Below, piece by piece: positions 5,314-64,000 of a stretch of DNA of 64,000 nt (position 1 is its first letter; the number at the start of each line of letters is the position of its first letter). Position numbers and translations under genes: made by a program. This stretch comes from Balamuthia mandrillaris (taxonomy: Eukaryota), in contig JAVKOQ020000019.1 in assembly GCA_031835245.2 (NCBI GenBank), positions 62,001 to 126,000 on the forward strand. Direction: 5' to 3'. Below the pieces are notes generated by a model. The model ran no database searches. It saw only the letters and a list, made by a program, of their open reading frames with translations, and was not told the origin of the DNA.

Positions 5314-5522
5314 TTTTTTGTTGTTTTTTTATATTTATGTAAAGAAATTTTCATCCAATTTCATAGTTGTCGGAAGGGTCGGCAGATATGACTAAAAATA
5401 GTAATATTAATTACGATCGGCGTTTAAATTATTGGTCACAGTTTTTCCTTTTTTTGTTCAAATCTCCGACACAAGTGTTTTATGTCGACTTGTCGACACA
5501 AAGATAAAGCAGAAAGATAGAA

Positions 5523-6593
5523 ATGAAAGGGCGGTTCTTCGTGACCGGCGGAAGCTGTTCTTGGCGGTGGTGGCACGCCTCTTCCTCTGTCGCTCGAAAG
5601 ACCACCAACCCGCGCTGTGGGTTGTGCAAAACTCGGCAACAAGCATCCTCTTCACCCCTCCTTCCCACAAGATACAAGAACACCTCCACAAAAAAGCAAT
5701 CCAAAAATGAGAAAGAAGCACTGGAGAACTACGAAACGGACGGCGACGCTTTGAACTCGCCCCACGTCCCTGTTCTGCTTCACGAGTGCCTCAGGGCTCT
5801 GCACATCCGTGAGGGGGGCCTCTACGTGGACGCCACATTTGGTCGTGGCGGCCACACCCAGGCCATCCTGGAAAGCAACGACACCTGTCGCGTCATCGCC
5901 GTTGACTGCGATGCCACCGCCTTTCAACAGGAGGGTCCTCGCCAGCTCTTCCAAAGGTTCGAGGGGCGAGTGACCCCCATTCACGGGCGTTTTGGGGAGC
6001 TGCACGCCCTCCTGCAGAGCGCGCAGGTGAGCCGAGTGGACGGCATTTTGTTCGACCTTGGCGTGAGCTCCCCACAGCTGGACACTCCCTCCCGTGGCTT
6101 TTCCTTTCGCCCTCACCTCTCCGGCCCTCTCGACATGCGCATGGATCAAACCTCTTCTGCTTCTTCGTCTGTTGTGTCAGCCAAGGAGGTGGTCAATCAG
6201 ATGGGCGAGGAGGAGCTGGCGGACATCCTCTGGCGATATGGCGAAGAGCGAAACTCGAGAAAGATCGCCAGGAACATCGTCAGGTACAGACAAACGGCCG
6301 CCATCGAGTCCACTGCTCAACTGGCGAACATCGTGAGAAGAGCGCAACAGCAGCCGAGAGCAGGAAAAGGAGGGGCAGGTGGGGAGAAGAAAGGCATTGA
6401 CCCTGCCACGAGAACGTTTCAGGCACTTCGTATCTTTGTGAATGACGAGGTTCGTTCTCGTTTCTCCTTTGCTTTTTTATTTGCACTAACGGTTTTCTTT
6501 TAATGCAGTTGGGACAGTTGGAAAAGGGACTTGTAGCTGCAGAAAGCCTGCTTGCAGAAGGTGGGCACCTCGCAGGTTAGTTTTCTCTCTCCC

Positions 6594-10893: not shown

Positions 10894-10978
10894 ACTCTCT
10901 TGTGCTTATTTTTTTTGTTCCTGAAAGAAGAAAGAAGAAACTAGGAGAGAACAAAACTACGAGACAAGAGGGAGGGCA

Positions 10979-32515: not shown

Positions 32516-34983
32516 GTTTTTGTGATTTTGTGTGATGTTTCAAAAGCTATTTTTTCACAGTGCCATTGAACTCGGCTGTGACCTCTTTTAACGCTGAGAT
32601 TGAGGGCGGCAGACAGGTCTCCATCAAGGTGATGGAGAACGAGGAAGCCCTTACGGCCTACCAACTCGAGGACGCGCTCCACAACAGCGCCATCTATAAT
32701 GCCCCACCTGGCGAGGAGGCTAGACCAAATGTCTTCACCGCTTGTATTGGCAGCATTCCTTCTGGTTCCTCCTCTTCTTCTTCTTCCATCTCTTCTTTTC
32801 TTCAACCCAGTCGCTTACTCAACTTCCACTCCTTTTGCTTTGCTTGCTTGTTTACGTATTTTTTTTTGGACGGTCACCAAAATAGGACACAAAGCAACGA
32901 TCAAGCTGACCTATATCACCGAACTCGCCTTTGAAAAAAGAGAGCGCAAAGGTGCTCGTCAACCGGCCGTTCCTCACAACGTTGCCCCCAATTCTGGTCG
33001 TCGCATCAAGTTCAGCCTTCCCTCTCGCCTTGCCCCCAAGCCCAAGAAACCAAGTTCTTCCTCCTCTTCTTCCAGTTTCTACGACAAAGGCCGCACGCCT
33101 TCTCTGAAGCTCTTTGTGGATGTTCAGTTGGAAATGTCGGAGCGCATTCAAGGAGTTGCGGCCAATCAGCCCATTTCGTTGGGGCTTAAGAGCGAGAAAA
33201 CAGGGAGAGTGACTGTTGGAGGAGGCTCCTTGGTAAAAGGCTTCAAGCACGATTTTGGGCTGTACATCTCTTTGACCAAGCAGCAAAGCAATCGTTGCTA
33301 TGCTCTATTGGAAGCGCCCCAAGAAGAGGGAGGAGCCTATACTGCTGTGCTTGTGGTATACCCAAAGGCCTTGATGCGCACTGCCGGTCCCTCTTCTGCT
33401 GAAAAAGACAATAAGAGGAAAGAAGACAAAGAGGGAGGAGAAGAAGAGGATAAAAAGAAAACGACAGCGGAGAAAGAAGAAAATAAAGGAGAAGGAGAGG
33501 ATGAAGACGAGGAAGAGGAAGGAGGTGAGGAAGGGGAGGAGGATGGAGAGGGTGAAGAAGGAGAAGGAGAGGAAGGCGAGGAACACGGCGAAGCTGAAAA
33601 GTGGCGAGATGAGAAGCAAAGTGGAGGTGGAGCAGATCAAAGTGCCACCAATACTAGACAACCAAAACCAGCTCTGACCGATCTGCATTTGGAGTGGACC
33701 ACCAATGACGGCAGCCCGCTTTCCGCTTCCATCAAAGAGAAGATCAAGCATAGCTTCATCCCAACTTCTGTTATCCTCAATCGACCCGTTTTGTTGGTCC
33801 ACTGCTCGTTGCCATTTGAAGCGTTTGGCCAATCCTCGAAAAACGACGAAGATAAGATGCTGAAAGTGACCATTGCGGGCGACTCCACTCGTGGAGGAGG
33901 CAAAGTATCGCTGGACCTGGAGTTAAAGGCCAGTGACGCCCTTCGTAGCGAAAAATACGACGCTCTCTTGCATCAACTCTTTGCCAGGTCACTGGTGAGA
34001 GGCTTGGAAAGGTCTCTGGAGGACGGCAAGGCAGAGTGGGAGCTCAAGAAGGAGATCATCGAGTTGGGCATGAGGTACGGCCTCTCCTCTCGCTTCACCA
34101 CATTTGTGGGAGTGGAACGGCAACAGCCTCCTGCTGCGGAAGAGGAGACCACCACTCCTGCTACTGTTGTGGAGAAGATAGTTCCTTTGAATGGACCAGC
34201 TTTTACCGAGGCCAGGAGATATCACGACTCTAGAGCTAGAGCTGGCAGAAGTGGAGGAGGAAGAGGAGGAAGGGGAGGATACGGTGGTGGCAGAGGAAGC
34301 GGCAGAGACAGTCGACGATTCGATGACCGTGGAGCATCAACACCCGGTAATGAGCAGCAGTACAACAGAGACACTGACTCTTATAGAGGAAGAGGAGGAG
34401 GTGGAAGAGGAGGCAGCGGCCGAGGAGGAAGAGGTGGAGGTAGAGATTTTGGTAGACGTGGAGGAGGTTATTCTTCTTCTTCTTGGGATCAAGGCAGAAG
34501 AGGAACTAGAGGAGAGGAAGCTGCTTCTCCTCCTCCACCGAAAGAGCTCAAGGTCAGTGCTGCTACTGTCGAGGCTCTAATAGCGTTGAAGCCACAGCAG
34601 GATGTTCCCTATTGGAAGCTGGCGTCGCCGCTGGCAGCTGCCTTTGGGCTAAGCATCACTGACCTCACGGATGGCCTTATTGGTCTTCCTCTCAGCGACT
34701 TTGTGAGCAACATTTGGGCTACCGCTTTGGTATTGATCGCCTTTTGCGCTTTATCTCTCTCTGTCTCTGTTTCTCTCTCTCCCGCTGACACGCAAAACAT
34801 TTCTTTACACAGGTGTTGGCAGCCACACGCACCCTGAGCGAAGAGGAGAAAGCCAAATGGGCACAAGTCACCGAACCCGCCGAGCAGTGGCTGAGCGCCG
34901 AGGCCGAAAAGAACGTCCTGCACGACCTCAACCACTGGCTGACCAAAGCCAATGCCTTCCTCACCAAACGTCTGCGCCAGTGA
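32149..34983 (+). CDS. VIT-domain protein (vWA5A-like) with an acidic linker and RGG region, multi-exon
   Basis: VAIRARVLDLFGRVQVEQVYTN..PVDA, NVFTACIGSIP, IKLTYITEL, LHQLFARSLVR, IIELGMRYGLSSRFTTFVGVE, WATAL|VLAA...W....EQWL. Confidence 0.8.
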
Positions 34984-37680: not shown

Positions 37681-37954
37681 ACAGAGCAACAGAAATGCCT
37701 GGAAAAATGCCGACCCTTGAAATAACGTGCGTTTTTTTTTTGAGCAATTGGGCCGAAAAGACGTTCCATTCAAGTTTCCTCTTTTCGTCAACTTTTCTCA
37801 TTCTTCTCCTTAAAAACACAGTTTATCTGGTTGCTCGAATTACTGGGTGGTTATGTTAATTATGTTCTTAATTAAGAGCGTTTCAGGTCTCCTCATTAAC
37901 GCTTTGCAACACGGCAAGAACAAACACACTAAAAAAAAAGCAAAGACCAGCAAG

Positions 37955-39841
37955 ATGAAAGTTGTGGCAACAGTCATACTGTTGGTGCTACTGGTGATTG
38001 TGTCTTTTGGAGGCGAAAATGGGGCTTTTATAGCGATGGTGGAGGCAGGTCAGGAGGACATGAGCGAGCCGCAAGGACCAGGAGCGCGATGCGTTCATAT
38101 TGACGACTTTACGGTGGCCGAGAGAGGGCAATGCAAGGACTACCTCACCTACGAAATGATATACAGCGACGAGAACACACCCTATAGACTTCGATCGCTG
38201 CAGTAAGTCTTTTTTTTTCTCTGCCTATTTATTGTGGAGTACGTTATACGCTAATATTTTTATCATTGTTGTCTTTTAAGGATCTGGTCGACAATACAAG
38301 GCTTGCTTCCTTCGACTTGTCTTGATAGTGGATGGCGAAGCCTGTGTGCTGGAATGTTTAGGTTGGCTCTCGTCTTTTTGTTTCGTTAATTGGTTTCGTT
38401 TTATTATGCCTAATGTATTCGCTGTCATCAGAGAATGTTTGCACATAAATGATACCTCTCCTCCCAATATTACGAACGAGGCAGGGACGAAAGTGGCGAT
38501 CGTTGGGCGGTTTCCCTGCAAGTCCTTGTGCTACGAGACACAGAGACTGTGTCAGGCAGCAGCTGCTAAGTTACTCGCGGAGATGATCAATTCCACCGCC
38601 GGCCTCAGTGCCCTGGACTGTACAAAGGCCTTCCCGCTGATGTGGGGCGTTCCCACATATGAGATCTTTCCCACAGGCCCCAACTACACCGTTCCCGTTA
38701 CTGCAGACGATGGCCAGACCTACTTCAATGCTACCATTCCTTGCTACGATGACAATTTTAATGTTACTGCCGGTTAGTGATGATCTTTTCTTCTTATTGT
38801 TGATGGTATCTTGGTCTTGGTGGTGTTGTCCTTTCTTCTTCTTGTTCTTTTTCTATTGCTGGGGTTCGGTTTCTTCTCAACATTCCTGAACTCTTGTCTT
38901 ACAACAGGAGGTGATATAAAATGTCCAACTGGACTTCATTCTACCGGCATTCCAGGGGAGTGTGCTTTCGACTGCCCTCAACCACTTATCACCGACAACG
39001 AATACCAAGCGGTGGAGGTCATGATGTCTGTCATGGCATGGATCTCCTTGGCCGCCACAGCCTTTGTGGCAGGGTCTTACCTGCTGGTGGCCTCCAAGAG
39101 GAAGTTTCCAGCGAACCTGCCATTGTTCTTCGTGGTGGCGGTGGGGGGTCGCACTTTGGCATTCTGTGTGGGAAGCATGGTGGGTCACGAGGAGGTGTGG
39201 TGTGATGGAGACAAACACTTCAACTCTTTTGGCGATGCTGCTTGCACCATTCAAGGTTTGTTGCCATGCTCGTTTTCTTTGGACTGCTGCACGTTCATCT
39301 CAAGCTCAAACTAAACCAAAAGGAATACTGTTCGTGTACTTCACATGGGCAGGGGCATTGTGGTGGCTGACCATCACTCTCAACCTCTTCTTCACTCTCG
39401 TTCTCTCCTGGCAGCCTAGTCAACACTTTCTCTTTACTCTTCCTTGCCTCAGCACTACATCCTACGAACAGCAGCAACAGCCACAAAAGAAGCATAAGGA
39501 CACCAAAAAAGGGCAAGTGTCGTTGGTGGAAGTGGTGTTCCACGCATGTTGTTGGGGAGTTCCTTTCATTCCTCTGATCATCGCGTTGAGCGGGCAACAA
39601 CTGGGCTATGCTGGATCTAGCTTCTGGTGCACCATCCATTCCGGCGATGGTGGCGTCGTGTTTGAAGGAAGCGCAGAAGGAACCACTCACTCGGGCTCGG
39701 AAGAGCACAACCTGTGGAACCTCATGCTGCTGACAGTTCCCATTTTGGTGTTGGTCTTCATCGGTGTGGTCCTGTTGATCATCGCTGCAGTAGTTGGTTA
39801 CAAGGTGATTATCACGTCCTTTTTATTTGCTCGTATTCTTG

Positions 39842-39873
<32 letters not shown>

Positions 39874-40473
39874 CTCATTGTGTTTTTCTTTGCTTGAATG
39901 CACGAACAGCGATCAAGAGAAGGATGGCAGTTTCTCATCCGGCAATGGCGGCTGTTCGCCTTCCTGCTGCTCTACGTGTGGATCTACACCTTCGTCTTCA
40001 GCTTCCAGATCCATTTCAACTACGTGCAGGAGGCCCAGTACGAAGCCTACGACGACTACATCAACTGCCTCTTCATCTCCAACGTTCAAGACCTGGTAAT
40101 CAATCCTGTCGAGGACGATATCCATTGCGAGTTGAGGCAGGAAGTCAGCTATGCTTTGTGGTTTGTAGTGACATTCAACGAGGTCAGTCAGGGCTTGTTC
40201 GTCTTTCTCATCTTTGGCACCTCCGGGGAGATTTGGAGCAAATGGCGTTTGGCCTTGTGGCAGTGCAGATGGAGGGCTGCTCTTGCTTCGGATGGTTCCA
40301 CTTCGTTGGGAGGAGGTGGGAGAGGCCGCCCTTCCTCTTCCAATTCTTCGGGGCAGCACAAGGAAGTGGTGGTGGTGGAGGGTGTGACCATGAAAGAGTT
40401 TACTTCCGAAGAGACAACAGAAGAGGAGGATGAGTACAGCAGCATGGAGGATGAGGAGGACGAAAGTGCGTAA
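37955..40473 (+). CDS. Frizzled/Smoothened-like GPCR, copy 1
   Basis: Signal peptide, cysteine-rich domain (C..YLTY, LCAGMFREC, RFPCKSLC), CAFDCPQP linker, 7TM (KRKFPANLP, CTIQGILFVYF..A..LWW, FWC, RQWRLFAF, QGLFVFLIFGTS). Confidence 0.88.
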
Positions 40474-40898
40474 CTTTTTTGGGGTGCGAAAATGTACAAA
40501 AAAAAATTAAAAATATCGATAAATATGAAATCAATATCAGATAAAGGAAATACTATCGATAATCAGTGAAATATTCTTCAGCACGGCAAATAAAGCAAAC
40601 AAAATCAATGATTTCTTCATAAAGGAAATACTATCGATTATCAGTGAAAATATCTTCTGCAGGGTAAATAAATCGAAGATTTTTTTTTAATATCTTAATG
40701 ACGGTAACGCAGACGAATGGACTCGCGCTGGTCCTGCTGTCTTCTGGGATACATTACATAAACGCGCAGATCTGAAGAGCCAAAAAAAAACCTAAGCATA
40801 ATGCAAAGTTTCTTGTTTTTTTTTATTTTGGCTCAGCAGACAACGTGGTTCCTTTTCGCAACGGAACCAAGGTTGACAGGGATCCAGGGCGCAAAGGC

Positions 40899-43412
40899 AT
40901 GAAGGCACCCACCGCTGCGGCAGTCGTGGCGGTACTGCTGCTGGTTGTGAGCGGAACAGCGGAGGGGGGTAAGGAGGAGGTGAGCGAGCCGCAAGGACCC
41001 GGCGCGCGGTGTGTCCATATCGACAACTTCACGACGGCGGAGCGAGGGCCTTGCAAGGACTACCTCACCTACCAGCTGATCTACACCGACGACAACGCAG
41101 CGTTTCGTTTTGCCGCTGTACAGTTCGTATTATTTTTAGTTTTTTTGAGTTTGTGCTATTTTTCCGCTTCAACTCGGTGTAACTGTCTTCCATGGACAAA
41201 AGGTTGTGGACGAGGTTGCAAGGCTTTGTGGCAGAGCCCTGTCTGGGCAGTTCGTGGCAGAAGTTATGTGCCGGAATGTTTCGGTGCGTCGTTCAATGTT
41301 GTGCGTCTTCCAGTTCCTTCTCCCTTAGCCCTTTTCTCTCTTCTTTCTTTTTCTTCTCTCTTCTCTCTTCTCTCTTCTCTTTTCTCTCCTCTCTTCTCTC
41401 TCCGCTCTCATCTTTCCTTCTCTGTTTCTCTCACGCTCTTTCTCTCTCGCTCCTCTCCTCTTGCTCTCTAGTCATCTTTCCTTTGCTTCTTACGTAGTGT
41501 TTTTTATCGGCCTTTTTCTGTATGTTTATTACAGAGAGTGCATGCGCATTCCTGATCCATCAGCACCATCCAACGTGGCCATCGTTGGGCGTTATCAATG
41601 TAGAAGCGTTTGCGTGCAGAACCAAGGTTTCTGCCAAGAAGCAGTTAAGGAGATCATTAAGCTGACTGGCAACATCACAACCGTGGATGAGCTGCTTGAC
41701 TGCAAGGTGCCTTCAGAGTTGACTTGGGGAGCTCCTTCTTACGACATCTTTCCTGACGGAAACTATACAGTGGGGGTATCAGCAGATGAAGGGCTTAGCT
41801 TTTTCAACACCACCATTCCATGTTATGAAGATAACCTCAACCTCACTGCTGGTTCGTAGCCGTCGCTTGTTCTTGTTCTTCGTCTCCTTCTCCTTCTTCT
41901 TCTTTGTCTTCTTATTCCTCCTCTTCTTCCGTTGTAGTGCCATCTGTAGAGTGTCCAGATGGGCTACATCCAACAGGGGAGCCAGGAGCTTGCGCCTTTG
42001 ACTGTCCTCAACCGGTCATCACCAACAACGAATACCAGGCGGTGGAGGTCATGATGTCCGTCATGGCATGGATCTCCTTGGCCGCCACAGCCTTTGTGGC
42101 AGGGTCTTACCTGCTGGTGGCTTCCAAGAGGAAGTTTCCAGCGAACCTGCCATTGTTCTTCGTGGTGGCGGTGGGGGGTCGCACCTTGGCATTCTGTGTG
42201 GGAAGCATGGTGGGTCATGAGGAGGTGTGGTGTGATGGAGACAAACACTTCAACTCTTTTGGCGATGCTGCTTGCACCATTCAAGGTTTGTTGCCTGCCA
42301 TTGCTCGTTTTCTTTGGACTGCTTCACGTTCATCTTATCCTTAAAGTAAACCAAAAGGAATACTGTTCGTGTACTTCACATGGGCAGGAGCATTGTGGTG
42401 GCTGACCATCACTCTCAACCTCTTCTTCACTCTCGTTCTCTCCTGGCAACATGATCACCTCCGACTCTATTCTCTTCCTTTCCTTCGTCGTTCTTCCCTT
42501 CAACAACAGCAAACTAGAAAAAAAGGAGTGTCGTTGGTGGAAGTGGTGTTCCACGCATGTTGTTGGGGGATTCCTCTCATTCCTCTGATCATCGCGTTGA
42601 GCGGACAACAATTGGGCTATGCTGGAGCCAGCTTCTGGTGCACCATCCATTCCGGCCAAGGCGAAGTGGTGTTTGAAGGAAGCGCAGAAGGCACCACTCA
42701 CTCGGGCTCGGACGAAGACAACCTGTGGAATCTTATGTTGTTGACGGTGCCAATATTGGTATTTGTCTTTGTGGGTGTTGTTTTGTTGCTTACCACCGCC
42801 GTCTTTGGATACAAGGTGAGAGAACCTTATCTCTTTCTCCATGTAATGCTTTGTTATTCATTCTTTTCATAGAAATCACAAGAAGGGTGGCAGTTCCTCA
42901 TCCGACAATGGCGGCTGTTCGCCTTCCTGCTGCTCTACGTGTGGATCTACACCTTCGTCTTCAGCTTCCAGATCCACTTCAACTACGTGCAGGAGGCCCA
43001 ATACGAAGCCTACGACGACTACATCAACTGCCTCTACATACAAGCCGTTCAGAAGATCACCAATCCATCACAACCGCTGACTTGCGAGTTGAGCCAAGAA
43101 GTCAACTTTGGGTTGTGGTTCGTGGTGACGTTCAACGAGGTCAGTCAGGGCTTGTTCGTCTTTCTCATCTTTGGCACCTCCGCTGGGGTGTTCCAGGCAT
43201 GGCGTTCCGCATTGTTGGAGTGTCGATGGAGCGCAGGCGAGGACATAGACCCTTCCAGAGGGTCATCAAGTGGCAAACATTCCTCTTCGGGGGTGGTGGT
43301 AGTTGTGGAGGGAGTAAACATGAAGGAGTTCTCGGAGGAGACGTCCAAGGAAGAGGAAAGCTCCGACACAGAAGAAGAGGAAGACGAGGATGCTTCTGAA
43401 GAACTGTATTGA
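40899..43412 (+). CDS. Frizzled/Smoothened-like GPCR, copy 2
   Basis: Same architecture and intron positions as copy 1. Confidence 0.88.
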
Positions 43413-43870
43413 TGGTTTTATTAATGCTTGGACATATTGTCAATGGAAGAAAAAAAAAAGAGAACCTCTTCTGGGAGCACCGGTAGTGTCCTCGCATTCT
43501 GTTCTTGTTCTTCTAGTGGTTCAAGGCTGCTCGCCAAGCATAATTATCAAGAGGGAAGAACAAGAAAATGCACTATGACCAGAATAACAAGAACACTGCT
43601 GGAGAAGAAAAGGTGAAGGGGAAGAGTCCGGCCAGTTGCAACAGCACGCGAAAGCGAGAGATGCAATGGTGCAGAGTTGTTAGGCGACATATTGGACAAC
43701 CGAAGAAAATGGAAAGACATCTATAACGGTATTATACGATTAATTACGGACCATATATCCGGTCGATGAGATCTTGGCGAGTGTTTCAAGAAAGAAAGGG
43801 TCGGCCTGTGCTGTTTGTTTCTATCCTGTGCAAGAAGACGCGGAGAAGAGGGCGAACGAATACATTGGCG

Positions 43871-46498
43871 ATGGCGATAACGCCAAGGACAACGAGCCCG
43901 CGGGTGGTTTGTTTGTGCGTTTTGTTGCTGTTCGAGCTGGAGTTGGCAGCGGCGCAGGTTCAATATATCAGCGAGCCGCAGGGACCGGGAGCGAGCTGCG
44001 TTCATGTGGACAACGTCACAGCGGAGCTGGGCGTGTGCAGGAACTACATTACCTACGAGTACATCTACAGCGATGACCATATGTCTTCACGGTTTGACGT
44101 GCTACGGTGAGTTTAACTTCTCCTTTGGTCTTGAACTTGTTGTTGTAACATTTTGTAAAAAAAACAAGATTGTTTGTACAAACACAGGGAGTTGTTGCTG
44201 AACCTTGTTTGAGCACAAGTTTTCGCAAGATCTGCGCCGGTCTCTTTAGGTTTGTGTTGCTTCTTGTGCATTCACAAAAAGAAATATATGTAGTCCTCCT
44301 GACCATTACGTTCAATAGAGAATGCCTGGCGCTTCCTTCTTCAACGGCCGACCAAGTTGCTGTGGTGGGGCGTTATCCCTGCCGAAGCCTCTGCAAAGAC
44401 TCTGAAGTCGCCTGCATAGAAGTCCTCTCCAAGCTGTTAATCGGGGTGGGCCTCACGGCAGAGACTGTACTCGACTGTGATGTCCCTTGGTCGGTCATGT
44501 GGGGCACACCTTCTCACGACATCTTTCCAGAAGGAAACTACACTGTGGAGGTGTCTCCGAACGTGCTAGAGATTCACGACCTGGTGAATGTCACCATTTC
44601 GTGTTATGATGGCAATCGCAACCTTACTGTTGGTAATGCTCGCTTTCTTTGCGTCTATCTTCTCTCTTCTTTCTTCTATCATCTTTCCTCTCATGCTTTC
44701 TTCTCCTGCCTTCGCTCGTATTAGCGCTCATCCCTTTGTTATCTTATTTCTTCTTACTCGCTCTCTCTCTCTCTCTCTCTCTCTTTTCTGGCGTCTTTCT
44801 TCTCTCTTTTGTCTTTTTGTTGTTTGACTCGTTTGTCTCTTTCTCACCTTTGCATGTAGAGCCACTAGTGGAGTGTCCAGATGGGCTACATCCAACAGGG
44901 GAGCCAGGAGCTTGCGCCTTTGACTGTCCTCAACCGGTCATCACCAACAACGAATACCAGGCGGTGGAGGTCATGATGTCCGTCATGGCATGGATCTCCT
45001 TGGCTGCCACGGCCTTGGTGATTGGCTCTTACATCTTGGTTGCTGGCAAGAGGAAGTTCCCAGCGAACCTGCCATTGTTCTTCGTGGTGGCGGTGGGAGG
45101 TCGCACCTTGGCATTCTGTGTGGGAAGCATGGTGGGTCATGAGGAGGTGTGGTGCGATGGAGACAAACACTTCAACTCTTTTGGCGATGCTGCTTGCACC
45201 ATTCAAGGTTTGTTGCCTGCCATTCGTTCTTTTTCTTTCTTTTCGTTAATGCTTTCTGCTTCTGGTGCGATAAACCAAAAGGAATACTGTTCGTGTACTT
45301 CACATGGGCAGGAGCATTGTGGTGGCTGACCATCACTCTCAACCTCTTCTTCACCATCGTTCTTTCCTGGAAGCTCGACCGCTACTGCATTCTCCCTCTT
45401 CTTTCCCCACGCCTCGCCCCTACCAATGTGGAGGAGGACGGCAGGGCCAAACGAAGGAAGAGTGGCGGAGTGTCGTTGGTGGAAGTGGTGTTCCAAACGC
45501 TTTGTTGGGGCCTTCCTTTCATCCCTCTGATCATCGCGTTGAGCGGACAACAACTGGGCTATGCTGGAGCCAGCTTCTGGTGCACCATCCATTCTGGTGA
45601 CGGCGAGGTGATTTTTCAGGGCAGCAGCGAAGGAACCACTCACTCGGGCTCGGAAGAGCACAACCTGTGGAACCTCATGTTGCTGACGGTCCCAATTCTT
45701 GTGTTGGTCTTCATCGGCGTCGTTCTATTGATCGTCACTGCTATAGTCGGTTACAAGGTGAGTAAACCTTGTTTGTCTTTCTTTTCATTGTGCTTCTCCG
45801 TCTTCTTCTTCTTCTCCCTTCTGTGCCTTTCAGGAGAGTGTTACTTATGGCGTTGTCTATGTTCTCCATAGAAATCGAGAGAAGGGTGGCAGTTCCTTAT
45901 CCGGCAATGGCGGCTGTTCGCCTTCCTGCTGCTCTACGTGTGGATCTACACCTTTGTCTTCAGCTTCCAGATCCACTTCAACTACGTGCAGGAGGCTCAG
46001 TACAAGGCCTACAACGACTATATCGACTGCCTCTACACCCATTCGGTGAGGGACCTGGTGTCCTCGCTGGCGGAGGGGATAGAGGAGTGCTCCCTGCGGC
46101 AGGAGGTCAATTTTGGGTTGTGGTTGGTGGTGACCTTCAACGAGGTCAGTCAGGGCTTGTTCGTCTTTCTCATCTTTGGCACCTCCGCTGGGGTGTTCCA
46201 GGCCTGGCGGTCGGCCTTGTGGCATTGTCGGTGGAGGGCGGCCTCGGGGAGCTCGAGCTCTGGAGGCACGCCGTCCTCGGGGCAGACGAAGGAGGTCATG
46301 GTAGTGGTGGAGGGGGTGACGATGAAAGAGTTCACGGAGGATGGCGGGACGGAGGCAGAGGCCAGCGAGGCAGAAGACGAAGAGGAGTACAGCCAAGAGG
46401 AGGAAGAGGAGCGAATGTGGATAATATATGTAAAGAAAATTGTAAATTATTTATTTTTTGATTTTTCATTGGATAGTTTTTCAAAAAGAGATCGATAA
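43871..46498 (+). CDS. Frizzled/Smoothened-like GPCR, copy 3 (3' end uncertain)
   Basis: Same architecture and intron positions as copies 1 and 2. Confidence 0.86.
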
Positions 46499-53751: not shown

Positions 53752-54743
53752 TGAGCATGGAGAGGAAAGGACGAAGTGAAGACGAGAGTAGCAAAGCCAG
53801 AGGCACTGAGAAGGAGATAAAACAGAAAAGAGAGAAAGAGGAGACGAAAGAAGAGCCCAGAGGACAGAGGAAAGGGGGAGGAGAAGTACCCAGCGATGGT
53901 TCTCAGGCCGCCGTTGGACAGGTCTGTGTCCTGGAGAGCGATCCATGCGGTGCACATGTTGGTGCTGTCCGATATTTGCCAAAAAGCATAATCCTGGTGC
54001 CATCCTATGTTTCCAGCTGTAGAGGCAGCGCTCTCACCTTCCCCTTCGCGAACGCCAGGTTTCCATATCGCCTTTTTCAGACTATGAGTGAATTGATGCG
54101 TACCTTCCCTTGAGCCTCTTCTTCGTTTCTCTTCTATTTGTCCTCTTCACTCATCCTCTCTCATTCCTCCCTATTCACTCTTCTCTCGCTTCTCTGCTTC
54201 GCTTTTTCTGTCTTTAAACTTACTTGATCATGCCAAAGGCGCACCTCAGTCGTTTCCAACAAAGCAGCAGCCACTCGACCGATGGCCGGGGAGGTAACGA
54301 CCTGCCGTAACGCGAGGTTGTTCCACCACGCGTTGTTGATCTTTCGAACATCAGGCGAGTCCTCCTTGTGTTTGCGCACCGAGCGCAGCCAGTACTGGTA
54401 TTCATAGGGAGGGGCGGCCGTATCCAGCTCGCCATGAAAGACGCGGTCGACCTCTTGACGAAGGCAGGCTATGTCCTGGTCCTCCAGCATCTTTGGCCCG
54501 ACCCAGTATCCTCTTTCTTTAAAGGTAGCCACATCTTCGGCAGTTGCTTTTTGTTGTTTGACGAAGAGACACCCTGAGTTACTTCTACTTAAAACGTTAT
54601 GCAGAAAAGAGAGAAAGAAAGGGGATACGTGTAACGTCAATGAGCCGTATGACGGGTCGCGATCCCTCGTTTGAGAAGGAAGGCTTGGGCAAAGGGGACC
54701 AGGTGGCGGACCACCCTGCCTCTGGGGTCCTGCTCTGCTCCAT
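53280..54743 (-). CDS. Phytanoyl-CoA dioxygenase (PhyH) family 2OG-Fe(II) oxygenase, multi-exon
   Basis: EDVATFKERGYW, EVRLWHDQ, GWHQDYAFW, MCTAWIALQDTDLSNGGL..I.GSHKWG, MKAGQ, H.LTFHGS..N.....R. Spliced start ATG at 54743 (MEQSRTPE...). Confidence 0.88.
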
Positions 54744-54905
54744 TTGGCTATGTGGGGAAGTGGTGGTGTTGGCTGCTGCTGTCGACGTAAAAAGCAGTTG
54801 CCCATCCCCCGGAAAACTTTCTTGGAAAAGTTTGCAACAGTGCACTCTCACAGCCCATTCTCCCTTTGTGGAGAGCAAGAGAGTTAAGAGAGCCTCAAAG
54901 AGAAG

Positions 54906-55739
54906 ATGCAACAAACCCAAATAACTGCCTTTATCTCTCGCTCTCCCACCAAAAGAAGGAAAGAGCAAGAGGAGAGCGATGAAGCACAAGCCTCGGAGCA
55001 GAAGAGGCCCAAGAACAAGGAGGAGGCGGTGAAGCGCAGTTCCACCAAGAGCCGTCGCAAAGGCAAAGAAATAGTTTCAGAGGAAGTGGAAGAAGAAACC
55101 GAAAACGAACCGTCACAGACTTCCTCCTCTTCCACCACCGCCAATGCCATAAAACCAACCTTTCAACGCAAAGAAATAAGCGAGGGCTGCTTTGTTAGCT
55201 TCTGCCCTAACTACCTCAACCCCTCCGAGGCCTCGGAGCTCTTTCAAGAGCTCCTCCAGCTGCCCAACTTCATCCAGGGGCAGTTCAAGATGTTTGGCAA
55301 ACCCGTCAAGACGCCCCGCATGCAGTCCTGGATGTCCGACCCCGAGCTGACCGCCAGCCTCTACCAGCGGCAACCCGCCCTGCCATGGTCCCCCCGGCTG
55401 GCCAAGCTGAGGGATGAAATGGGGGCGCTCTGCGGAGGGTGTCACTTTGACTACGTGCTCATCAACCTGTACCGAGACGGAAGGGACTACATCGGCTTTC
55501 ATGCGGACAAGGAGGCCATCCCGGAGGGGAAGAACAAGATAGCCTCGCTGTCCCTGGGAGAGCCACGGCGGTTCCTGATGCGGCGGTACAAGGAGAAGAA
55601 GGCCTCCCTGGAGTACCTGTTGACCCCAGGCAGCGTTATTTTGATGGAGGGCGAGACGCAGCGCCACTGGAAGCACAGCGTGCCGAAAGAGCCCAAGCGC
55701 ACGCGGCCTCGCATTAACCTCACCTTTCGCATCGCGTAG
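54906..55739 (+). CDS. AlkB-family 2OG-Fe(II) dioxygenase (ALKBH2/3-like DNA repair demethylase), intronless
   Basis: KMFGK...PRMQSW, VLINLYRDGRDYIGFHADKE, IASLSLGEPRRF, GSVILMEGETQRHWKHSVPK, RINLTFR. Confidence 0.93.
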   Translation: MQQTQITAFISRSPTKRRKEQEESDEAQASEQKRPKNKEEAVKRSSTKSRRKGKEIVSEEVEEETENEPSQTSSSSTTANAIKPTFQRKEISEGCFVSFCPNYLNPSEASELFQELLQLPNFIQGQFKMFGKPVKTPRMQSWMSDPELTASLYQRQPALPWSPRLAKLRDEMGALCGGCHFDYVLINLYRDGRDYIGFHADKEAIPEGKNKIASLSLGEPRRFLMRRYKEKKASLEYLLTPGSVILMEGETQRHWKHSVPKEPKRTRPRINLTFRIA

Positions 55740-55794
55740 GGACAGAGCGAATGTACAGCAATAAAATGGGTCTGCCCTAACCAAGTACAGCAGA

Positions 55795-55935
55795 GCTCAG
55801 AGCTGTGATCTCTATCTGAAAGTTTCAAACCACCAATCAAAAATCAAAACATAGGCTGAACTTACCATAAAAAGGCTATGCTATATTTGTCTCAAGCAGA
55901 GATCTTCCACGTCGACAAAAATGTATTGCTCCTCT
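55795..55935 (-). repeat. Dispersed ~140-bp intergenic repeat, copy 2 (inverted relative to copy 1)
   Basis: Reverse complement of 35168-35326, with small indels. Confidence 0.85.
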
Positions 55936-56675
55936 TTGTCGGAAAGAAAAAAAAAACGTACGAACAAGCAAGAGCGAAAAGAAAAGGCCCTCTTTGTGGT
56001 TGCTATTTTTTGTTTCTTTCTTGTTCTTATTGTCTTTCCGTAGCACCAAAAGCGCTCATTGCGAGGGGAAGGGTGGGTGTGTGAAGGGGCAGGAGCGTTG
56101 ATGGACAGTTAAGCCTTTAAGGTTTTACATATCCGGTTTTCGCTTTTAATTTGCTTTGGGCCTCTCTGCGTTTCGCCACCATGACAACACGCGCGTAAGC
56201 TTCCTTCCCCTTTGGTCTCTTTTTTATAAGCTTCGTTCATCTTTTTTTTTTTGGCCACAACGCCGCAGGGAGGGTCTGCCGTATCGTCATGGTCTGAGTG
56301 CACTATGTCGACAAAATTTCCAAAAAGCGAATGCTTGGTGTCCGTTGGTGGAACAGAGCAACTCCGCACAAAGCAAAAAAAAAAAAGGGTTTTTGTTTTT
56401 CGGCCCATTTGATTGGTGGAACGGATGGGATTAACCAACCGCAGCAAAGCTCAGGTTCGCTTGTCAGCTTTTTTTTTTTTTTGGTGCAGAGCAGATCATT
56501 TCACGTCTATAAAAGGGATCCTTGTTTTTTTTTTTTCTTTGGGGCTCTTCGGCAAAGATAACTAAATTCGTGTCTGTGCAGGCACTACGGTTTGGTTGGT
56601 TTTCATTTTTTTTTTTCAGAGGGGCTTTTTGCGAGCAAGTGCTTCACCTTGTACACACAAAACACGCGCCTACCA

Positions 56676-59600
56676 ATGAACGCGTCGTCGTTTTTGTTGT
56701 CCTTGCTGTTTTCGCTAGTGGTCGGCGGCTGTTTGGCAGCGACGCCGGCGTGCAGGTTCACTCCCGAGGCGGATGACTTTGTGATATATCACCAAGAAAG
56801 TGATTCGGAGACCCTTCGCTTGACCCACAACGGCACGCTCTATGCCTGTGGAGCGCGTGACCTGTGCGAGCTCTTCGAGGACCCTGTCATCTGGTTGTTG
56901 GAGGGCACCGCCGGAGTGTATCGCCCCCACAACGGTTCGCTGTTGGTGCCGGCTTCGTTTGATAACCTCAACAACGACTTTGATGGGCTGACTCACGTGG
57001 CTCCCGCTGAAGGACCTGGTGCTTCACCTCCTCCCCCTTCCTTTGTTGTTGTTTTCCGCCACGCTTACCAACTCGAAACAAAAGGAGCACGCTTGGTGTT
57101 TTGGGGCAGCAGAGCAGCGTTCAGAGCGGGTGTGGTGAGCGGCGAGCAATGGAACGCTGACAATGTGGGAGAGGGCTCCGCGGCCTTCGGCTTGGACACC
57201 ACTGCCTTTGGCAGCGGGTCTCTCGCCTATGGCGTTTGTAAGTCCATTGCTTCTCTCTTATTATGTTGATGATTAACCCTTCTTTCTTTATTGTTGCTCG
57301 ATGCAAGCCTCGGAGTCAAATATAACCTCTTATGGAGGCGGATCCCTGGCTGGCGGTTTCGGTTTGTCATTCTCTTTCTCGCTCGCTCTCTTGCTTTCAA
57401 CTTTCAAGTTAACCTCTCTGCTGCCAATTGTGAAAACAGTGCTAACAGGGGCTAGCATCTCCGCCTCAGGGGCGGGTTCTTTCGCTCATGGTCAAGGTTG
57501 TTTTTTTTTCTTTGCTTTTTTCTGCCTTTAGCTGAATCCCTTTTTTTATTTTGCTTCCTCGTTCCTTATTCTTTGTCTTGTTCTGCTGTGACTGTTTACA
57601 TAGGCGACTCCTTGGGCAGCGTTGAAGCCGTGGGTGTCGGCTCAACAGCTGTTGGCCATGGTATTCCTCTCTTCATTTTCTTGTTTGTTTTAGTTCTGTT
57701 CTAATGCTGAAGCTTGTGTCTTACCTGCAGTCTCTGGAGGAGATATACACGCTATTGCCCCTGGGTCACTTGTTGGTGGATCTGGTAAGTTCGCGCCTCC
57801 TCTTCTCCCACTCCATTGCTTCTATAACCAAACCTCCCTTGAATTGTTACCATTTTGAACTAACAATACAAAAACAACAATAAACAGCCAGCGGCAGTTC
57901 CCGCGTATCAACCACTGGCCCAGGTTCCATTGCCTATGGCGAAGGTTTGTGTTCTCCCTCCAACTTATCTGCTTTTTTTGTGCCAACCGTTGGTGTGGTT
58001 CTTTAGCACACACCGGGGGATCAATCAGCGCTAAGAGTCCTGGCGCAGTTGCATTTGGACAAGGTACCTTATTCCAACCGTACAACGCTCTATAAAAGCC
58101 ATTTGCACGCGTTGTATTAATTTTCTGCTGTTTCATAGCCTCCAACTCAAACATTACAGCGGAGGGTTCTGGTGCTTTCGCAATCGGAGCAGGTTTCAAT
58201 CTCTCTCTCCTCCTTTGACATGTTTATCTTTTCTTGTTTATCTCTCTCTCTCTCTCTCTCTCTCTCCCGCTCTCCCTCTTCCTCATTTAACTTTCGACTG
58301 ATGATGACACATGCAGCAATTGAGGGAGAGATCAGGGCGGTAGCATCGGGTGCAATGGCAGGAGGTTATGGTAAGCAGCCTTGTCCCTTCTTTCTCTTCG
58401 GAACATCGAATGCATAGTCTTTACAATCTTTGTTCCTGCTTCTCTTCCACTTTGGTAGCTCAAGGTAATACAAGCGAGATCATGGCTAGTGGTTCTGGTG
58501 CCATTGCGTTTGGTTATGGTGCTTACTCCTCTTATTCCTTCTTCTCCTTCGCCTCTTCCACCTTGTACTTTGGCTGATGATGACATTCAGCGAATGAGGG
58601 AGCTATCAGTGCACTTTCAGCGGGTACACTGGCCGGAGGTTATGGTAAGCAGCTCTGCCCTTCCTCTTCTTTCTCTTCGGAGCATCACATGCACGGTTTT
58701 ACAATCTTTGTTCCTGCTTCTCTTCCACTTTTGCAGCTCAAGGTGACAGCGAGATCACGACTAGTAGTTCTGGTTCCATTGCTTTTGGTTATGGTGTTTA
58801 GCCCTCTCCCTGTTCAACTTATCTTATTTACTCCTCTACCTCCTCCCTGTCCTCCTTGTGCTTTGACTGATGATGCGCATTCAGCGAATGATGGAGATAT
58901 CATGGCGGTTGCACCAGGTGCACTGGTGGGAGGATTAGGTAAGCAGCCTTGTCCCTTCTTCCTCTTCGGAACATCACATGCACGGTCCTTTACACTCTTT
59001 CTTCCTGCTTCTCTTCCACTTTTACAGCTGAAGCTGGCAGCACGATCTTTGGTGCTGGTGCAGGAGCTATTGCATTTGGTTATGGTGCTTACTCAACTTC
59101 CTCCCCTCGTTTTTCTACTCCTCTTGTTCCGCCTTCCCTTCTTCCTCTTGCAACTTTTGGCTGATGATGACACATGCAGCAAATAATGGAGATATCATGG
59201 CGGTTGCATCAGGTGCACTGGTAGGAGGTTATGGTAAGCAGCCTTGTCCCTTCTTCCTCTTCGGAACATCACATGCACGGTCTTTTACACTCTTTCTTCC
59301 TGCTTCTCTTCCACTTTGGCAGCTCAAAGTGACGGCGAGATCATGGCTTCTAATTCCGGTGCCATTGCGTTTGGTTATGGTGCTTGCCCCTCTTCCTCCT
59401 CTCTTTTTTTTTTGCTGCTCCTCTTGGAATATTAAATGCACACCCCTCTTCAATCTTTGTTCCCACTCTTGCAGCTGAAGGTAACACAGGCCAAATCACG
59501 GCTGCTGGCGCAGGTTCCAGTGTGTTTGGTTATGGTGCTTACTCCTCTTCCTCCCCTCTTTTTTCTGCCTTCTTATTCCTTCTGCTGCATCTCCTTTTGA

Positions 59601-62600
59601 CTGATGATGTCACATGCAGCGTATGAGGGAGCTATCAGGGCGGTTTCATCAGGTGCACTGGCAGGAGGTTATGGTAAGCAGCCTTGTCCCTTCTCCCTCT
59701 TCGGAACATCACATGCACAGTCTTTTACACTCTGTGTTCCTGCTTCTCTTCCACTTTTGCAGCTCAAGGTGACAGCGAGATCTCGGCTAGTGGTTCTGGC
59801 GCCAGTGCATTTGGTTATGGTGCTTACTCCTCTCCCTCCTCTCCTTTTTGTTGTGCTCCTCTTGGAATCATAAACTCACCCTCCTTTTCAATCTTTGTTC
59901 CCACCCACTCTTGCAGCTCAAGGTAGTACTGGCGAGATCCTGGCTTCTGGTACAGGTGCCAGTGCGTTTGGTTATGGTGCTTACTCCTCTCTTATTTCTG
60001 CTCCTTTTGTTCCTTCTGCTCCTCTCCCTCTGCTTCCGTCACATTTTGGCTGATGATGACACATGCAGCAAGTGATGGAGCTATCAGGGCGGTTTCATCG
60101 GGTGCAATGACAGGAGGTTATGGTAAGCAGCCTTGTCCCTTCTTCCTCTTCGGAACATCACATGCACGGTCTTTTACACTCTGTGTTCCTGCTTCTCTTC
60201 CACTTTTGCAGCTCAAGGTGACAGCGAGATCACAGCTAGTGGTTCTGGCGCCATCGCGTTTGGTTATGGTGCTTGCTCCTCCCCACTTCAACTTTGCTTA
60301 TCTGCTTCTCTTTCTCCTCCCTCTCCTCCTCTGTCACATTTTGGCTGATGAAGACATATGCAGCAAATGATGGAGATATCACGGCAGTTTCATCGGGTGC
60401 ACTGGCAGGAGGTTATGGTAAGCAGCCTTGCCCCTTCTTCCTCTTTGGAACATCACATGCACAGTCTTTTACACTCTGTGTTCCTGCTTCTCTTCCACTT
60501 TTGCAGCTCAAGGTGACAGCGAGATCTCGGCTAGTGGTTCTGGCGCCAGTGCATTTGGTTATGGTGCTTACTCCTCTCCCTCCTCTCCTTTTTGTTGTGC
60601 TCCTCTTGGAATCATAAACTCACCCTCCTTTTCAATCTTTGTTCCCACCCACTCTTGCAGCTCAAGGTAGTACTGGCGAGATCCTGGCTTCTGGTACAGG
60701 TGCCAGTGCGTTTGGTTATGGTGCTTACTCCTCTCTTATTTCTGCTCCTTTTGTTCCTTCCTGCTCCTCCTCCTCTTCTTCCGTCACCTTTTGGCTGATG
60801 AAGACATGCAGCGAATGAGGGAGCTATCAGGGCGGTTTCATCGGGTGCACTGGCAGGAGGTTATGGTAAGCAGCCTTGTCCCTTCTTTCTCTTCGGAACA
60901 TCGCATGCACGGTCTTTTACAATCTTTCTTCCTGCTTCTCTTCCACTTTTGCAGCTCAAGGTGACAGCGAGATCTCGGCTAGTGGTTCTGGCGCCAGTGC
61001 GTTTGGTTTTGGTGCTTACTCCTCTTCCTCTCCTCTCTTTTTGTTGTGCTTCTCCTCTTGGAATCATAAACTCACCCTCCTTTTCAATCTTTGTTCCCAC
61101 TCTTGCAGCTCAAGGTAGTACTGGCGAGATCCTGGCTGCTGGTACAGGTGCCAGTGCGTTTGGTTTTGGTGCTTACTCCCCTTCCTCCTCTCCTTTTTTA
61201 TGCTCCTCTCCTACCCTTCTTCCTCCGTCACCTTTTGGCTGATGACACATGCAGCGAATGATGGACCTATCAGGGCGGTTTCATCGGGTGCACTGGCAGG
61301 AGGTTATGGTAAGCAGCCTTGTCCCTTCTTCCTCTTTGGAGCATCACATGCACGGTCTTTTACACTCTTTCTTCCTGCTTCTCTTCCACTTTGGCAGCTC
61401 TAGGTAATACAAGCGAGATCATAGCTTCTGGTGCAGGTGCCAGTGCGTTTGGTTTTGGTGCTTACTCCTCTTCCTCCTCTCCTCTTCACTTCAACTTATT
61501 TTGTTTACTCCTCTACCTCCTTCCTCTCTTCCTCCTTCACCTTTTGACTGATGATGACACATGCAGCGAATGAGGGCGAGATCAGGGCGGTTTCATCGGG
61601 TGCACTAGCAGGAGGTTTAGGTAAGCAGCCTTGTCCCTTCTTCCTCTTCGGAACATCACATGCACGGTCCTTTACACTCTTTGTTTCTGCTTCTCTCCCA
61701 CTTTGGCAGCTCAAGGTGACAGCGAGATCATGGCTAGTGGTTCTGGCGCCAGTGCGTTTGGTTTTGGTGCTTACTCCTCTTCCTCTCCTCTCTTTTTGCT
61801 GTGCTTCTCCTCTTGGAATCATAAACTCACCTCCTTTTCAATCTTTGTTCCCACTCTTGCAGCTCAAGGTAGTACTGGCGAGATCCTGGCTGCTGGTACA
61901 GGTGCCAGTGCGTTTGGTTTTGGTGCTTACTCCGCTTCCTCTTCCCTCTTTTTTATGCTCCTCTTCCTCCTCCCTCTCTTTCTCATTCACCTTTTGGCTG
62001 ATGATGACACATGCAGCGAATGACGGCGAGATCATGGCGGTTTCATCAGGTGCACTGGCAGGAGGTTATGGTAAGCAGCCTTGTCCCTTCTTCCTCTTTG
62101 GAGCATCACATGCACGGTCTCTTACAATCTTTGTTCTTGATACTCTTCCACTTTGGCAGCCCAAGGTAATACTGGCGAGATCCTTGCTGCTGGTACAGGT
62201 GCCAGTGCGTTTGGCTATGGTGCTTACTCCTCTTCCCCTTCTCCTTTTCTGCTCCTCTTCCTCTTCCCCCTCTTTCTCCCTCACCTTTTGGCTGATGACA
62301 CATGCAGCAAATGATGGAGCTATCACGGCAGTTGCAACAGGTACACTGGCCGGAGGTTATGGTAAGCAGCCCAGTCATTCCCTTTATCCTTTCGATCATC
62401 GAATGCACGGTCTTTTACACTCTGTGTTCCTGCTTCTCTTCCACTCTTGCAGCCCAAGGTAATACAAGCGAGATCATGGCTTCTGGTGCAGGTGCCAGTG
62501 CATTTGGTTTTGGTGCTTACTCCATTTCCTCCTCTCCTCTTCCTCCTCCCCCTCTTTCTCCCTCACCCTTTTGGCTGATGATGACACATGCAGCGAATGA

Positions 62601-64000
62601 GGGCGATATCAGGGCGGTTTCATCAGGTGCACTGGCAGGAGGTTATGGTAAGCAGCCTTGTTCCTTCTCCCTCTTTGGAACATCACATGCACGGTCTTTT
62701 ACAATCTTTGTTCCTGCTTCTCTTCCACTTTTGCAGCCCAAGGTGACAGCGAGATCATAGCTGCTGGTGCAGGTGCCAGTGCGTTTGGTTTTGGTGCTTA
62801 CTCCTCTTCACTTCAACTTTTTTTGTTTGCTCCTCTTCCTCGCCCCCTCTTCCTCCACCACCTTTTGGCTGATGATGACACATGCAGCGAATGATGGCGA
62901 GATCAGTGCGGTAGCATCGGGTGCAACGGCAGGAGGTCATGGTAAGCAGCCTTGTCCCATCTTCCTCTTCGGAACATCACATGCACGCGGTCTTTTACAC
63001 TCTTTCTTCCTGCTTCTCTTCCACTTTTGCAGCCCAAGGTAATACAAGCGAGATCATAGCTTCTGGTGCAGGTGCCAGTGCATTTGGTTTTGGTGCTTAC
63101 TCCTCTTCACTTCAACTTATTTTGTTTACTCCTCTACCTCCCTCTCTTCCTCCTTCACATTTTGGCTGATGATAACACATGCAGCGAATGAGGGTGAGAT
63201 CAGGGCGGTTTCACCGGGTGCACTGGCAGGAGGTTATGGTAAGCAGCCTTGTCCCTTCTTCCTCTTTGGAACATCACATGCACAGTCTTTTACAATCTTT
63301 CTTCCTGCTTCTCTTCCACTTTGGCAGCTCAAGGTGATACAAGCGAGATTCTAGCTGCTGGTGCAGGTGCCAGTGCGTTTGGTTTTGGTGCTTACTCCTC
63401 TCCCTCCTCCCTCTTTTTTATGCTCCTCTTCTTCCTCGCTCTCTTCCTCCTTCACATTTTGGCTGATGATGACACATGCAGCGAATGAGGGTGAGATCAG
63501 GGCGGTTTCACCGGGTGCACTGGCAGGAGGTTATGGTAAGCAGCCTTGTCCCTTCTTCCTCTTTGGAGCATTACATGCACGGTCGTTTACAATCTTTGTT
63601 CCTGCTTCTCTTCCACTTTTGCAGCTCAAGCTGACAGCGAGATCATAGCCAGTAGTTCTGGTGCCAGTGCATTTGGTTATGGTGCTTACTCCTCTTCCTT
63701 CTCTTTTTGTTGTGCTGCTCCTCTTGGAATATTCAATGCGCCCTCCTTTTCAATCTTTGTTCCCACTCTTGCAGCTCAAGGTAACACAAGCGAGATCCTG
63801 GCTGCTGGTACAGGTGCCAGTGCGTTTGGTTATGGTGCTTACTCCTCTCTTATTTCTGCTTCTCTTGTTCCTTCCTGCTCCTCCTCCTCTTCTTCCGTCA
63901 CCTTTTGGCTGATGAAGACATGCAGCGAATGAGGGAGCTATCAGGGCGGTTTCGCCGGGTGCACTGGCAAGAGGTTATGGTAAGCATTTTTTTCCGTTTG
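56676..64000 (+). CDS. Secreted YadA/tail-fibre-head-like repeat protein encoded by a micro-exon array (3' end outside window)
   Basis: Signal peptide MNASSFLLSLLFSLVVGGCLA. Exon 1 (56676-57237) ends GARLVFWGSRAAFRAGVVSGEQWNADNVGEGSAAFGLDTTAFGSGSLAYG. About 46 phase-1 exons of 54/57/60 nt follow (e.g. 57308-57361, 57440-57496, 57604-57660, 57731-57784, 58317-58370), each one Gly/Ala-rich repeat. Confidence 0.82.
58300..63985 (+). repeat. Tandem exon-intron repeat array (units of ~145-155 bp grouped in pairs or triplets)
   Basis: Recurring blocks gatgacacatgcag, gtaagcagccttgtcccttc, ccacttttgcagctcaagg and gtgcttactcc. Confidence 0.95.

Follow-up and report, generated by a model that had tools for sequence, protein, structure and literature searches.

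At the end of a 64,000-nt stretch of Balamuthia mandrillaris DNA (contig JAVKOQ020000019.1, positions 62,001 to 126,000; hereafter the window) lies a spliced gene whose visible coding sequence is carried mostly by very short, symmetric exons. The gene is on the plus strand, and its frame is still open at the window's end, so that the gene extends beyond 64000. Coordinates are those of the whole window, and exon boundaries were parsed by script from the sequence. The features of the gene are as follows.

56676..57237, plus strand: exon 1, 562 nt, 187 codons plus 1 nt, phase 1, with the ATG at 56676
56676..56738, plus strand: likely signal peptide, roughly aa 1-21, assigned on hydropathy and a helix prediction only
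57081..57236, plus strand: neck domain and first YadA-type turns, aa 136-187
57308-57361, 57440-57496, 57604-57660, 57731-57784, 57888-57944, 58007-58063 and 58139-58192, plus strand: seven older, divergent micro-exons (exons 2-8)
58317..63979, plus strand: class A exons, 54 nt, starting at 58317, 58591, 58885, 59180, 59620, 60069, 60364, 60812, 61255, 61567, 62017, 62308, 62594, 62888, 63185, 63482 and 63926; core residue Gly in 16 of 17
58737..63681, plus strand: class B exons, 57 nt, starting at 58737, 59028, 59323, 59763, 60212, 60507, 60955, 61710, 62737 and 63625; core residue Phe in 10 of 10
58459..63834, plus strand: class C exons, 60 nt, starting at 58459, 59475, 59917, 60661, 61109, 61398, 61863, 62160, 62453, 63033, 63328 and 63775; core residue Phe in 12 of 12
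60866..60954, plus strand: an after-A intron as example, a type with 16 copies of 88-92 nt and the donor GTAAGC
61012..61108, plus strand: example of the B-to-C intron, 6 copies, its 5' part resembling the before-A intron and its 3' part the after-A intron
59703..60760, plus strand: most recent duplication or conversion, with 314 identical nt at 59703 and 60447

Exon 1 ends at a GTAAGT donor (57238) and is followed by 46 micro-exons between 57308 and 63979, of which 20 measure 54 nt, 14 measure 57 nt and 12 measure 60 nt. All 46 are symmetric (phase 1-1), every acceptor is AG (CAG in 41, TAG in four, AAG in one), all 47 donors are GT, and the introns of the array span 62-124 nt. Joined to exon 1, the micro-exons give a frame of 1053 aa that contains no stop and runs off the window; the symmetric exons contribute 866 of these visible residues. 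The original observation, that all exons after the first are 54, 57 or 60 nt long, flanked by AG and GT, in phase 1-1 and free of stops and frameshifts, was thus recovered for 46 of 46. As a control for chance, the same AG..GT pattern of open, framework-bearing exons occurred nowhere else in the window, on either the plus or the minus strand.

From 58317 onward the units run AC AB AB ABC ABC AB ABC ABC AC ABC AC AC AB AC AC ABC A (17 A, 10 B, 12 C). The three classes first proposed, ordered as AB, AC or ABC, therefore hold, with two refinements: B and C form a single structural class, one residue apart and with a Phe core (22 of 22), and exons 2-8 belong to an older, divergent set. The introns of exons 2-8 match the later intron classes at shuffle level or slightly above, except the intron after exon 8. 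Gly-core (A) and Phe-core (B/C) rungs alternate in that two A exons never adjoin and three B/C exons never stand in a row. None of 200,000 order shuffles lacked both AA and a run of three B/C, a result that was not taken as evidence of selection because the units are duplicated as blocks. The alternation may reflect complementary packing, although block duplication alone could preserve the order, and exon changes that are safe for the frame are probably not neutral for the fold. Donors differ by class, GTGCTT following B and C and GTAAGC following A. The last visible A exon (63926-63979) carries Arg at the core position, where the 16 others carry Gly, and its donor context is altered; the array may end around this point. 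Between 58317 and 63979, in-frame alternative AG acceptors lie 6 nt inside 21 B/C exons, 15 nt inside one C exon and 12 nt inside 10 A exons. Their use could trim loop residues; the RNA reads seen use the upstream CAG.

Exon 1 encodes, in order, a hydrophobic N-terminus, a partial connector domain that it shares with the paralog P0002 (described below), the neck domain and two short YadA-type turns. Its 11-residue Kyte-Doolittle maximum is 2.85 at residue 6, and a helix spans residues 4-15 in a low-confidence model. At E <= 0.001, 907 representative proteins match exon 1, the best stretch being nearly always aa 136-186; 150 of the 907 were listed and 20 scanned with Pfam, which placed YadA_head above cut-off in 18 of the 20 and Peptidase_S74 in 10. 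The neck is up to 62% identical over 50 aa to bacterial proteins with a neck and YadA_head. In these proteins the neck domain precedes YadA-like beta-roll heads; here it precedes the micro-exon turns. In the ESM Atlas the region of aa 136-187 falls beside YadA_head clusters (score 0.96), and on exon 1 itself the Pfam YadA_head model scores 12.2 bits (E 0.25), below its cut-off of 25. A GTDB scan returned five loci in scattered taxa at 47-64% identity, a scan of viral contigs found the neck in none of 48 candidates, and a metagenome scan for the exon-intron junction of the repeat found none. Exon 1 and an in-frame stretch running from B through the intron into C were also used in word-index protein searches; these found nothing, which is weak evidence because they were limited to proteins of at most 2000 aa.

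Among the 150 matches listed, the closest relative across exon 1 and the repeats is P0002 (KAL6069532.1 / QOT17_007556), a B. mandrillaris protein of 2919 aa that is 27-31% identical to the window protein, and it alone among them carries the neck signature of the window gene. Its turns are spaced 18-20 aa apart in 45 of 46 cases; in the other 149 listed matches, counted with a different pattern, the spacing is 14 in 771 of 1058 cases. P0002 is built from some ten neck-turns-connector units, a few of which are almost the same over about 259 aa, and ends in a coiled-coil-like tail. It shares the neck signature, the 18-20 aa turns and the hydrophobic N-terminus with the window gene. It differs in having about ten units with short runs of turns, as opposed to one neck and at least 48 turns, and in lacking the Gly/Phe alternation. 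Pfam found no anchor, outer-membrane beta-barrel or S74 domain in P0002, its matches being spurious-looking only.

The 46 micro-exons, aligned from their ends, give the consensus I-x-A-x-x-x-G-A-x-A-x-G-Y, with both glycines present in 46 of 46. The YadA turn has been described as GxNSVAIGAxSxAx with a conserved G@8, in the passages available from PMC9543794. The window consensus maps onto this turn, lengthened by 4-6 residues that follow G@8-Y@9; Gly occupies position 8 in all 46 exons and Ala position 6 in 41. The 14-residue period of PF05658 does not carry over: the micro-exon turns are 18-20 aa long and only those of exon 1 are short. When a segment of P0002 (aa 2560-2880) was modeled as three chains, the predicted trimer scored 0.96 against 0.00 for the best control, with a predicted local distance difference test (pLDDT) value of at least 91 and at least 90% of contacts agreeing between runs; this model is of the paralog rather than the window tract, and its pass may be memory of solved YadA-like trimers. 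Of 30 solved microbial pairs, 21 attained the mark for the score, whereas none of 23 single chains did; for eukaryotes the figures were 17 of 29 and 0 of 30. In the P0002 model the predicted interface strip recurs once per turn on the G-A-x-A-x-G-Y strand, and the I-x-A-x strand lies outside. The position-3 Gly packs onto the residue that follows G@8 in the adjacent chain, an arrangement consistent with the window exons (Gly in 46 of 46, Tyr or Phe in 37 of 46). In a wider structural search with a poor model, ranks 2-12 were occupied by heads of trimeric autotransporters or fragments of such heads (Z 4.0-4.9).

One micro-exon is therefore predicted to form one rung of a fibre. At 4.8 A per layer, the value given in the part of PMC9543794 consulted, 46 such rungs would make a rod of at least about 22 nm. 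The protein is acidic (isoelectric point 4.05), and its tract is rich in Gly, Ala and Ser and free of Cys. The earlier proposal of an adhesin-type surface protein gains from the YadA_head homology and the predicted structure, which together suggest that the protein is likely secreted and of an adhesin-type fold.

Three RNA runs (X16, X17 and X18) and one DNA run (X2) were compared with one ABC unit, 60770-61235; 3-5% of each RNA run was examined, and joints were listed from 3 reads with 2 starts upward. Sixteen reads of X16 and four of X17, the latter all exonic, fell on the unit, and none of X18 did. The B-C joint was present in 6 X16 reads from 2 starts and the C-A joint in 2 reads, and in 8 reads the letters of the A end stood immediately 5' of the B start. 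The B-to-C intron is thus spliced out, and the suggestion of a functional gene is supported by a transcript that is both expressed and spliced at B-C, C-A and A-B. Each of these joints is an existing neighbor pair in the genome. Joints absent from the genome (A-A, B-B, C-C and C-B) were not listed among the 20 RNA reads, a depth too low to test skipping. In X16, three reads lay in the after-A intron and two in the after-B intron. The RNA reads, which represent few molecules only, are 80-95% like the compared window copy, and one of five variant sets fully matches a window copy; therefore, the reads come from another strain, haplotype or copy. Across 54000-58420, X16 reads fall on exon 1 and none on exons 2-8 or junctions 1-8. 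On the DNA side, 286 contigs of X2 stack on 60770-61235, carrying numerous variants and go-back joints. This pile-up suggests copies or alleles in excess of those in the window, in a number that is not quantifiable; summed contig depth in the DNA runs was not used as copy number.

Variation among the window copies indicates which features of the gene are maintained. Nucleotide diversity (pi) is 0.041 at framework zero-fold sites, 0.187 at other zero-fold sites and 0.223 at four-fold sites; the framework sites were picked from the same alignment, which makes the contrast partly circular, yet they agree with the YadA motif. Gap patterns that are not multiples of three number 22 of 27 in introns and none in exons. 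The ratio of nonsynonymous to synonymous polymorphism (pN/pS) among these copies, 0.69-0.85, reveals no raised nonsynonymous rate. The frame and scaffold are thus under purifying selection, while the other sites drift almost neutrally. Diversifying selection found no support: non-framework diversity (0.187) lies near that of four-fold sites (0.223) and not above it, and no sign of positive selection was seen.

The array also records how it was built. Every intron, the first included, interrupts the turn at the same position, and exons and introns have been copied together. The identical 314-nt block, the incompatibility of 151 of 276 informative site pairs and the failure of exon distances to track those of the following intron (rho 0.17, p 0.20) all argue for conversion and unequal crossover, and repeated mutation at CpG sites could add to the incompatibility signal. 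In the B-C intron, the 5' end scores 47.8 against the before-A class and the 3' end 38.8 against the after-A class, with shuffles near 19-24. This chimeric intron is likely the scar of an in-frame deletion of an A exon. Together with the mosaic units, it supports variability at the DNA level, and it bears out there the expectation that exons can be duplicated or deleted without loss of frame. Array growth by copying of exon-plus-intron units is accordingly likely.

Several known systems resemble the locus in part. YadA-like heads (YadA, BpaC, UspA1 and AtaA; PF05658) share the x-A-x-G inner strand, the invariant G@8, A@6 and the trimer predicted for P0002, whereas their turns have 14 aa and those of the window 18-20, with the extra residues after G@8-Y@9 and a Gly at position 3. 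In BpaC, a three-layer expansion comparable to the two- and three-rung units of the window and an acidic head are described (PMC9543794, in part). Unlike trimeric autotransporters, the window gene is eukaryotic and spliced, and its visible part contains no beta-barrel anchor, which would not be expected in an amoeba. Bacterial fibers of the neck, YadA_head and Peptidase_S74 type, and also adhesins of giant-virus islands, likewise place a neck before YadA-type turns, but their own turns are mostly 14 aa long and S74 is absent from P0002. In fibrillar collagens, with their 54-nt exons, and in intron-rich leucine-rich repeat genes, one repeat occupies one exon. The window gene resembles these in exon boundaries that coincide with the structural repeat and in growth via exon duplication; it differs in its fold and in being a likely imported fiber rather than a native eukaryotic one. 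The gene is not a member of the YadA family at the level of Pfam, not an autotransporter as far as seen and not a micro-exon gene (MEG) of the schistosome kind; it works like the known one-repeat-per-exon genes and probably folds as a YadA head with lengthened turns.

A preprint has mentioned the most spliced Balamuthia transcript, T2T133g112675, which has 63 introns and repeating exons likened to prokaryotic ice-nucleation repeats (bioRxiv 10.1101/2025.02.25.640156). This is probably the window gene or a paralog; thus, the description of the locus as an undescribed system was too strong. In the part of the preprint consulted, the mention is confined to one sentence, with no fold, phase or mechanism. 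The literature searched contained no other work on both Balamuthia and ice nucleation, and PMC10471605 held no passage on YadA, adhesins or introns. No YadA-like fiber gene in an amoeba was described in that literature, most subscription papers lying outside the search.

Taken together, with a probability of about two in three, the locus is read as a spliced B. mandrillaris gene in which at least 46 phase-1 micro-exons are each predicted to supply a single rung of a fiber, a trimeric beta-roll of YadA type that is likely secreted, the array having likely grown by tandem copying of exon-plus-intron units. A number of results weigh against this reading. Pfam YadA_head matched neither five single C exons nor P0002; Foldseek returned no match at E <= 0.001, its top row being a YadA-like domain at E 2.1; the Z values of the wider structural search are middling; and neither the exon profile nor P0002 nor exon 1 retrieved a meaningful match from PDB sequences. 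AlphaFold2 monomers were of low confidence (pLDDT 46 and 55), and the trimer model shares this side of the balance through its use of a paralog and its possible memory of solved structures. To these are added the reads in the after-A intron, the imperfect likeness of the few RNA molecules, the lack of reads on exons 2-8, the circularity of the framework contrast and the absence of stops, which alone is weak (P about 0.06). A neck tree (60 of 148 rows, 50 columns) was without resolution and allowed no donor to be named. Adhesion is inferred from the fold only, and the C-terminus and any anchor lie past 64000.

The alternatives were weighed on the same evidence. The most far-reaching holds that symmetric exons are skipped in a regulated manner, as in schistosomes, so that one locus yields many fiber lengths and surfaces. 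Schistosoma MEGs carry short symmetric exons across most of their coding sequence and encode secreted products; their exons are mostly 15 bp, their introns reach 5 kb and skip isoforms are documented (passages of PMC4350168 and PMC10526429). The likeness drawn to these genes therefore stands for exon symmetry, short symmetric exons making up the greater part of the coding sequence, and fails for exon size and intron length, since the locus has homologous 54-60 nt repeats and introns of about 90 nt, with no skipping seen among the 20 RNA reads. An elevated nonsynonymous rate, another MEG trait, is likewise lacking among the copies. The symmetry of all 46 exons would suit skipping; however, it follows automatically once a single unit of exon plus intron is duplicated. 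Class-specific donors of differing strength, modular rungs with a tolerated in-frame genomic deletion, and the in-frame alternative acceptors (22 within B/C exons, 10 within A exons) would favor it as well, as would the lower diversity of the after-A intron (pi 0.092) relative to the four-fold sites in A exons (0.203; p 0.019 by permutation), although CpG-touching sites account for part of this excess. Set against it are RNA joints that are all genomic neighbor pairs, the strict alternation of Gly and Phe cores, non-framework diversity no higher than synonymous, and short introns typical of the species, whose mean is 113 nt in the portion of bioRxiv 10.1101/2025.02.25.640156 consulted. Regulated skipping is accordingly judged unlikely. 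Equally doubtful is its fullest form, a splicing-programmable beta-solenoid in which a horizontally acquired adhesin fiber of a human-pathogenic amoeba has each rung on a separately spliceable exon, and the cell adjusts how long the fiber is and what surface it presents by leaving out AB, AC or ABC blocks and by recombination.

A structural coat or cyst-wall fiber or spacer of the same fold, rather than an adhesin, is somewhat less probable again. It would accord with a likely secreted, rigid, acidic and Cys-free tract rich in Gly, Ala and Ser, with exposed positions that drift neutrally and with the coiled-coil-like tail of P0002, which has no Pfam anchor or S74 match, but the closest solved folds are adhesin heads. 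That the tract is a decaying or neutrally amplifying repeat of little function is very improbable. The pN/pS values, the low RNA depth and the lack of these repeats among annotated proteins of 126-2000 aa, itself weak evidence, point in that direction; yet none of the 46 exons is frameshifted while introns contain many such changes, the two glycines are invariant, no splice site is damaged and there are spliced reads. The lowest probability, by a little, falls to ice-nucleation or ice-binding repeats, a likeness suggested by the preprint annotation (bioRxiv 10.1101/2025.02.25.640156, in part), by two ice-binding proteins in weak structural rows (Z 3.9 and 3.8) and by one ESM Atlas cluster with LbR_Ice_bind in 19% of its members. 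The tract, with its period of 18-20 aa, is preceded by a neck of the YadA-head type, and Pfam ice-nucleation models gave no match at E up to 10. Bacterial ice-nucleation repeats have 16 residues with GYGS and TxT; in the 866-aa tract TxT occurs once and GYGS or AGYGS never.

For the YadA-type fiber reading, a sequence of events can be proposed. A gene with a neck and beta-roll would have been imported from bacteria or a virus, and its 14-residue turn would have grown to 18-20 residues, as in P0002. A single phase-1 intron may then have become fixed right after the G-x of the turn, after which AB, AC and ABC units would have been amplified by unequal crossover and conversion, with an A exon deleted in frame once. 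Constitutive splicing would yield an acidic rod, probably an attachment or coat fiber, and differences in its length would arise chiefly from one allele or strain to another. The donor could equally have been viral or bacterial, because giant-virus islands show an enrichment of YadA and S74 proteins (PMC13620141, as far as its available passages go), and the neck tree does not decide between them.

Other features of the window were noted alongside. An intronless AlkB-like dioxygenase of the 2-oxoglutarate-Fe(II) type (54888-55739) adjoins the fiber gene and has Balamuthia relatives at 96, 80 and 59% identity. Close to it, at 55818-55860, the summed contig depth reaches 134 in a bin, as against about 8 nearby, with many loose ends; this is probably a dispersed repeat. 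Three or four tandem paralogs at 37814-46498 combine a Cys-rich N-terminal part with several hydrophobic segments and presumably resemble Frizzled-type seven-membrane receptors; the one exon scanned gave no Pfam match. At 10925-12430 lies an intronless open reading frame with an F-box and ankyrin repeats, a type common in amoebal giant viruses. A 734-aa open frame with a Gly/Arg-rich part (32633-34837) is without a Pfam match, and genes for an Adaptin N-terminal domain protein (567-1451) and an MraW/RsmH methyltransferase (5508-6503) are ordinary.

The locus offers a case in which a likely imported fiber gene of prokaryote or virus type has become modular and rich in introns. An intron that was fixed once, at a structural boundary, was multiplied with its exon and left behind datable layers and a deletion scar. 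If block skipping were true, the gene would be a splicing-tuned adhesin in a protist. In B. mandrillaris, a gene that may have more introns than any other, previously mentioned in passing as ice-nucleation-like, is given a predicted fold and becomes a candidate secreted protein, as well as a testable surface marker and a locus for strain typing.

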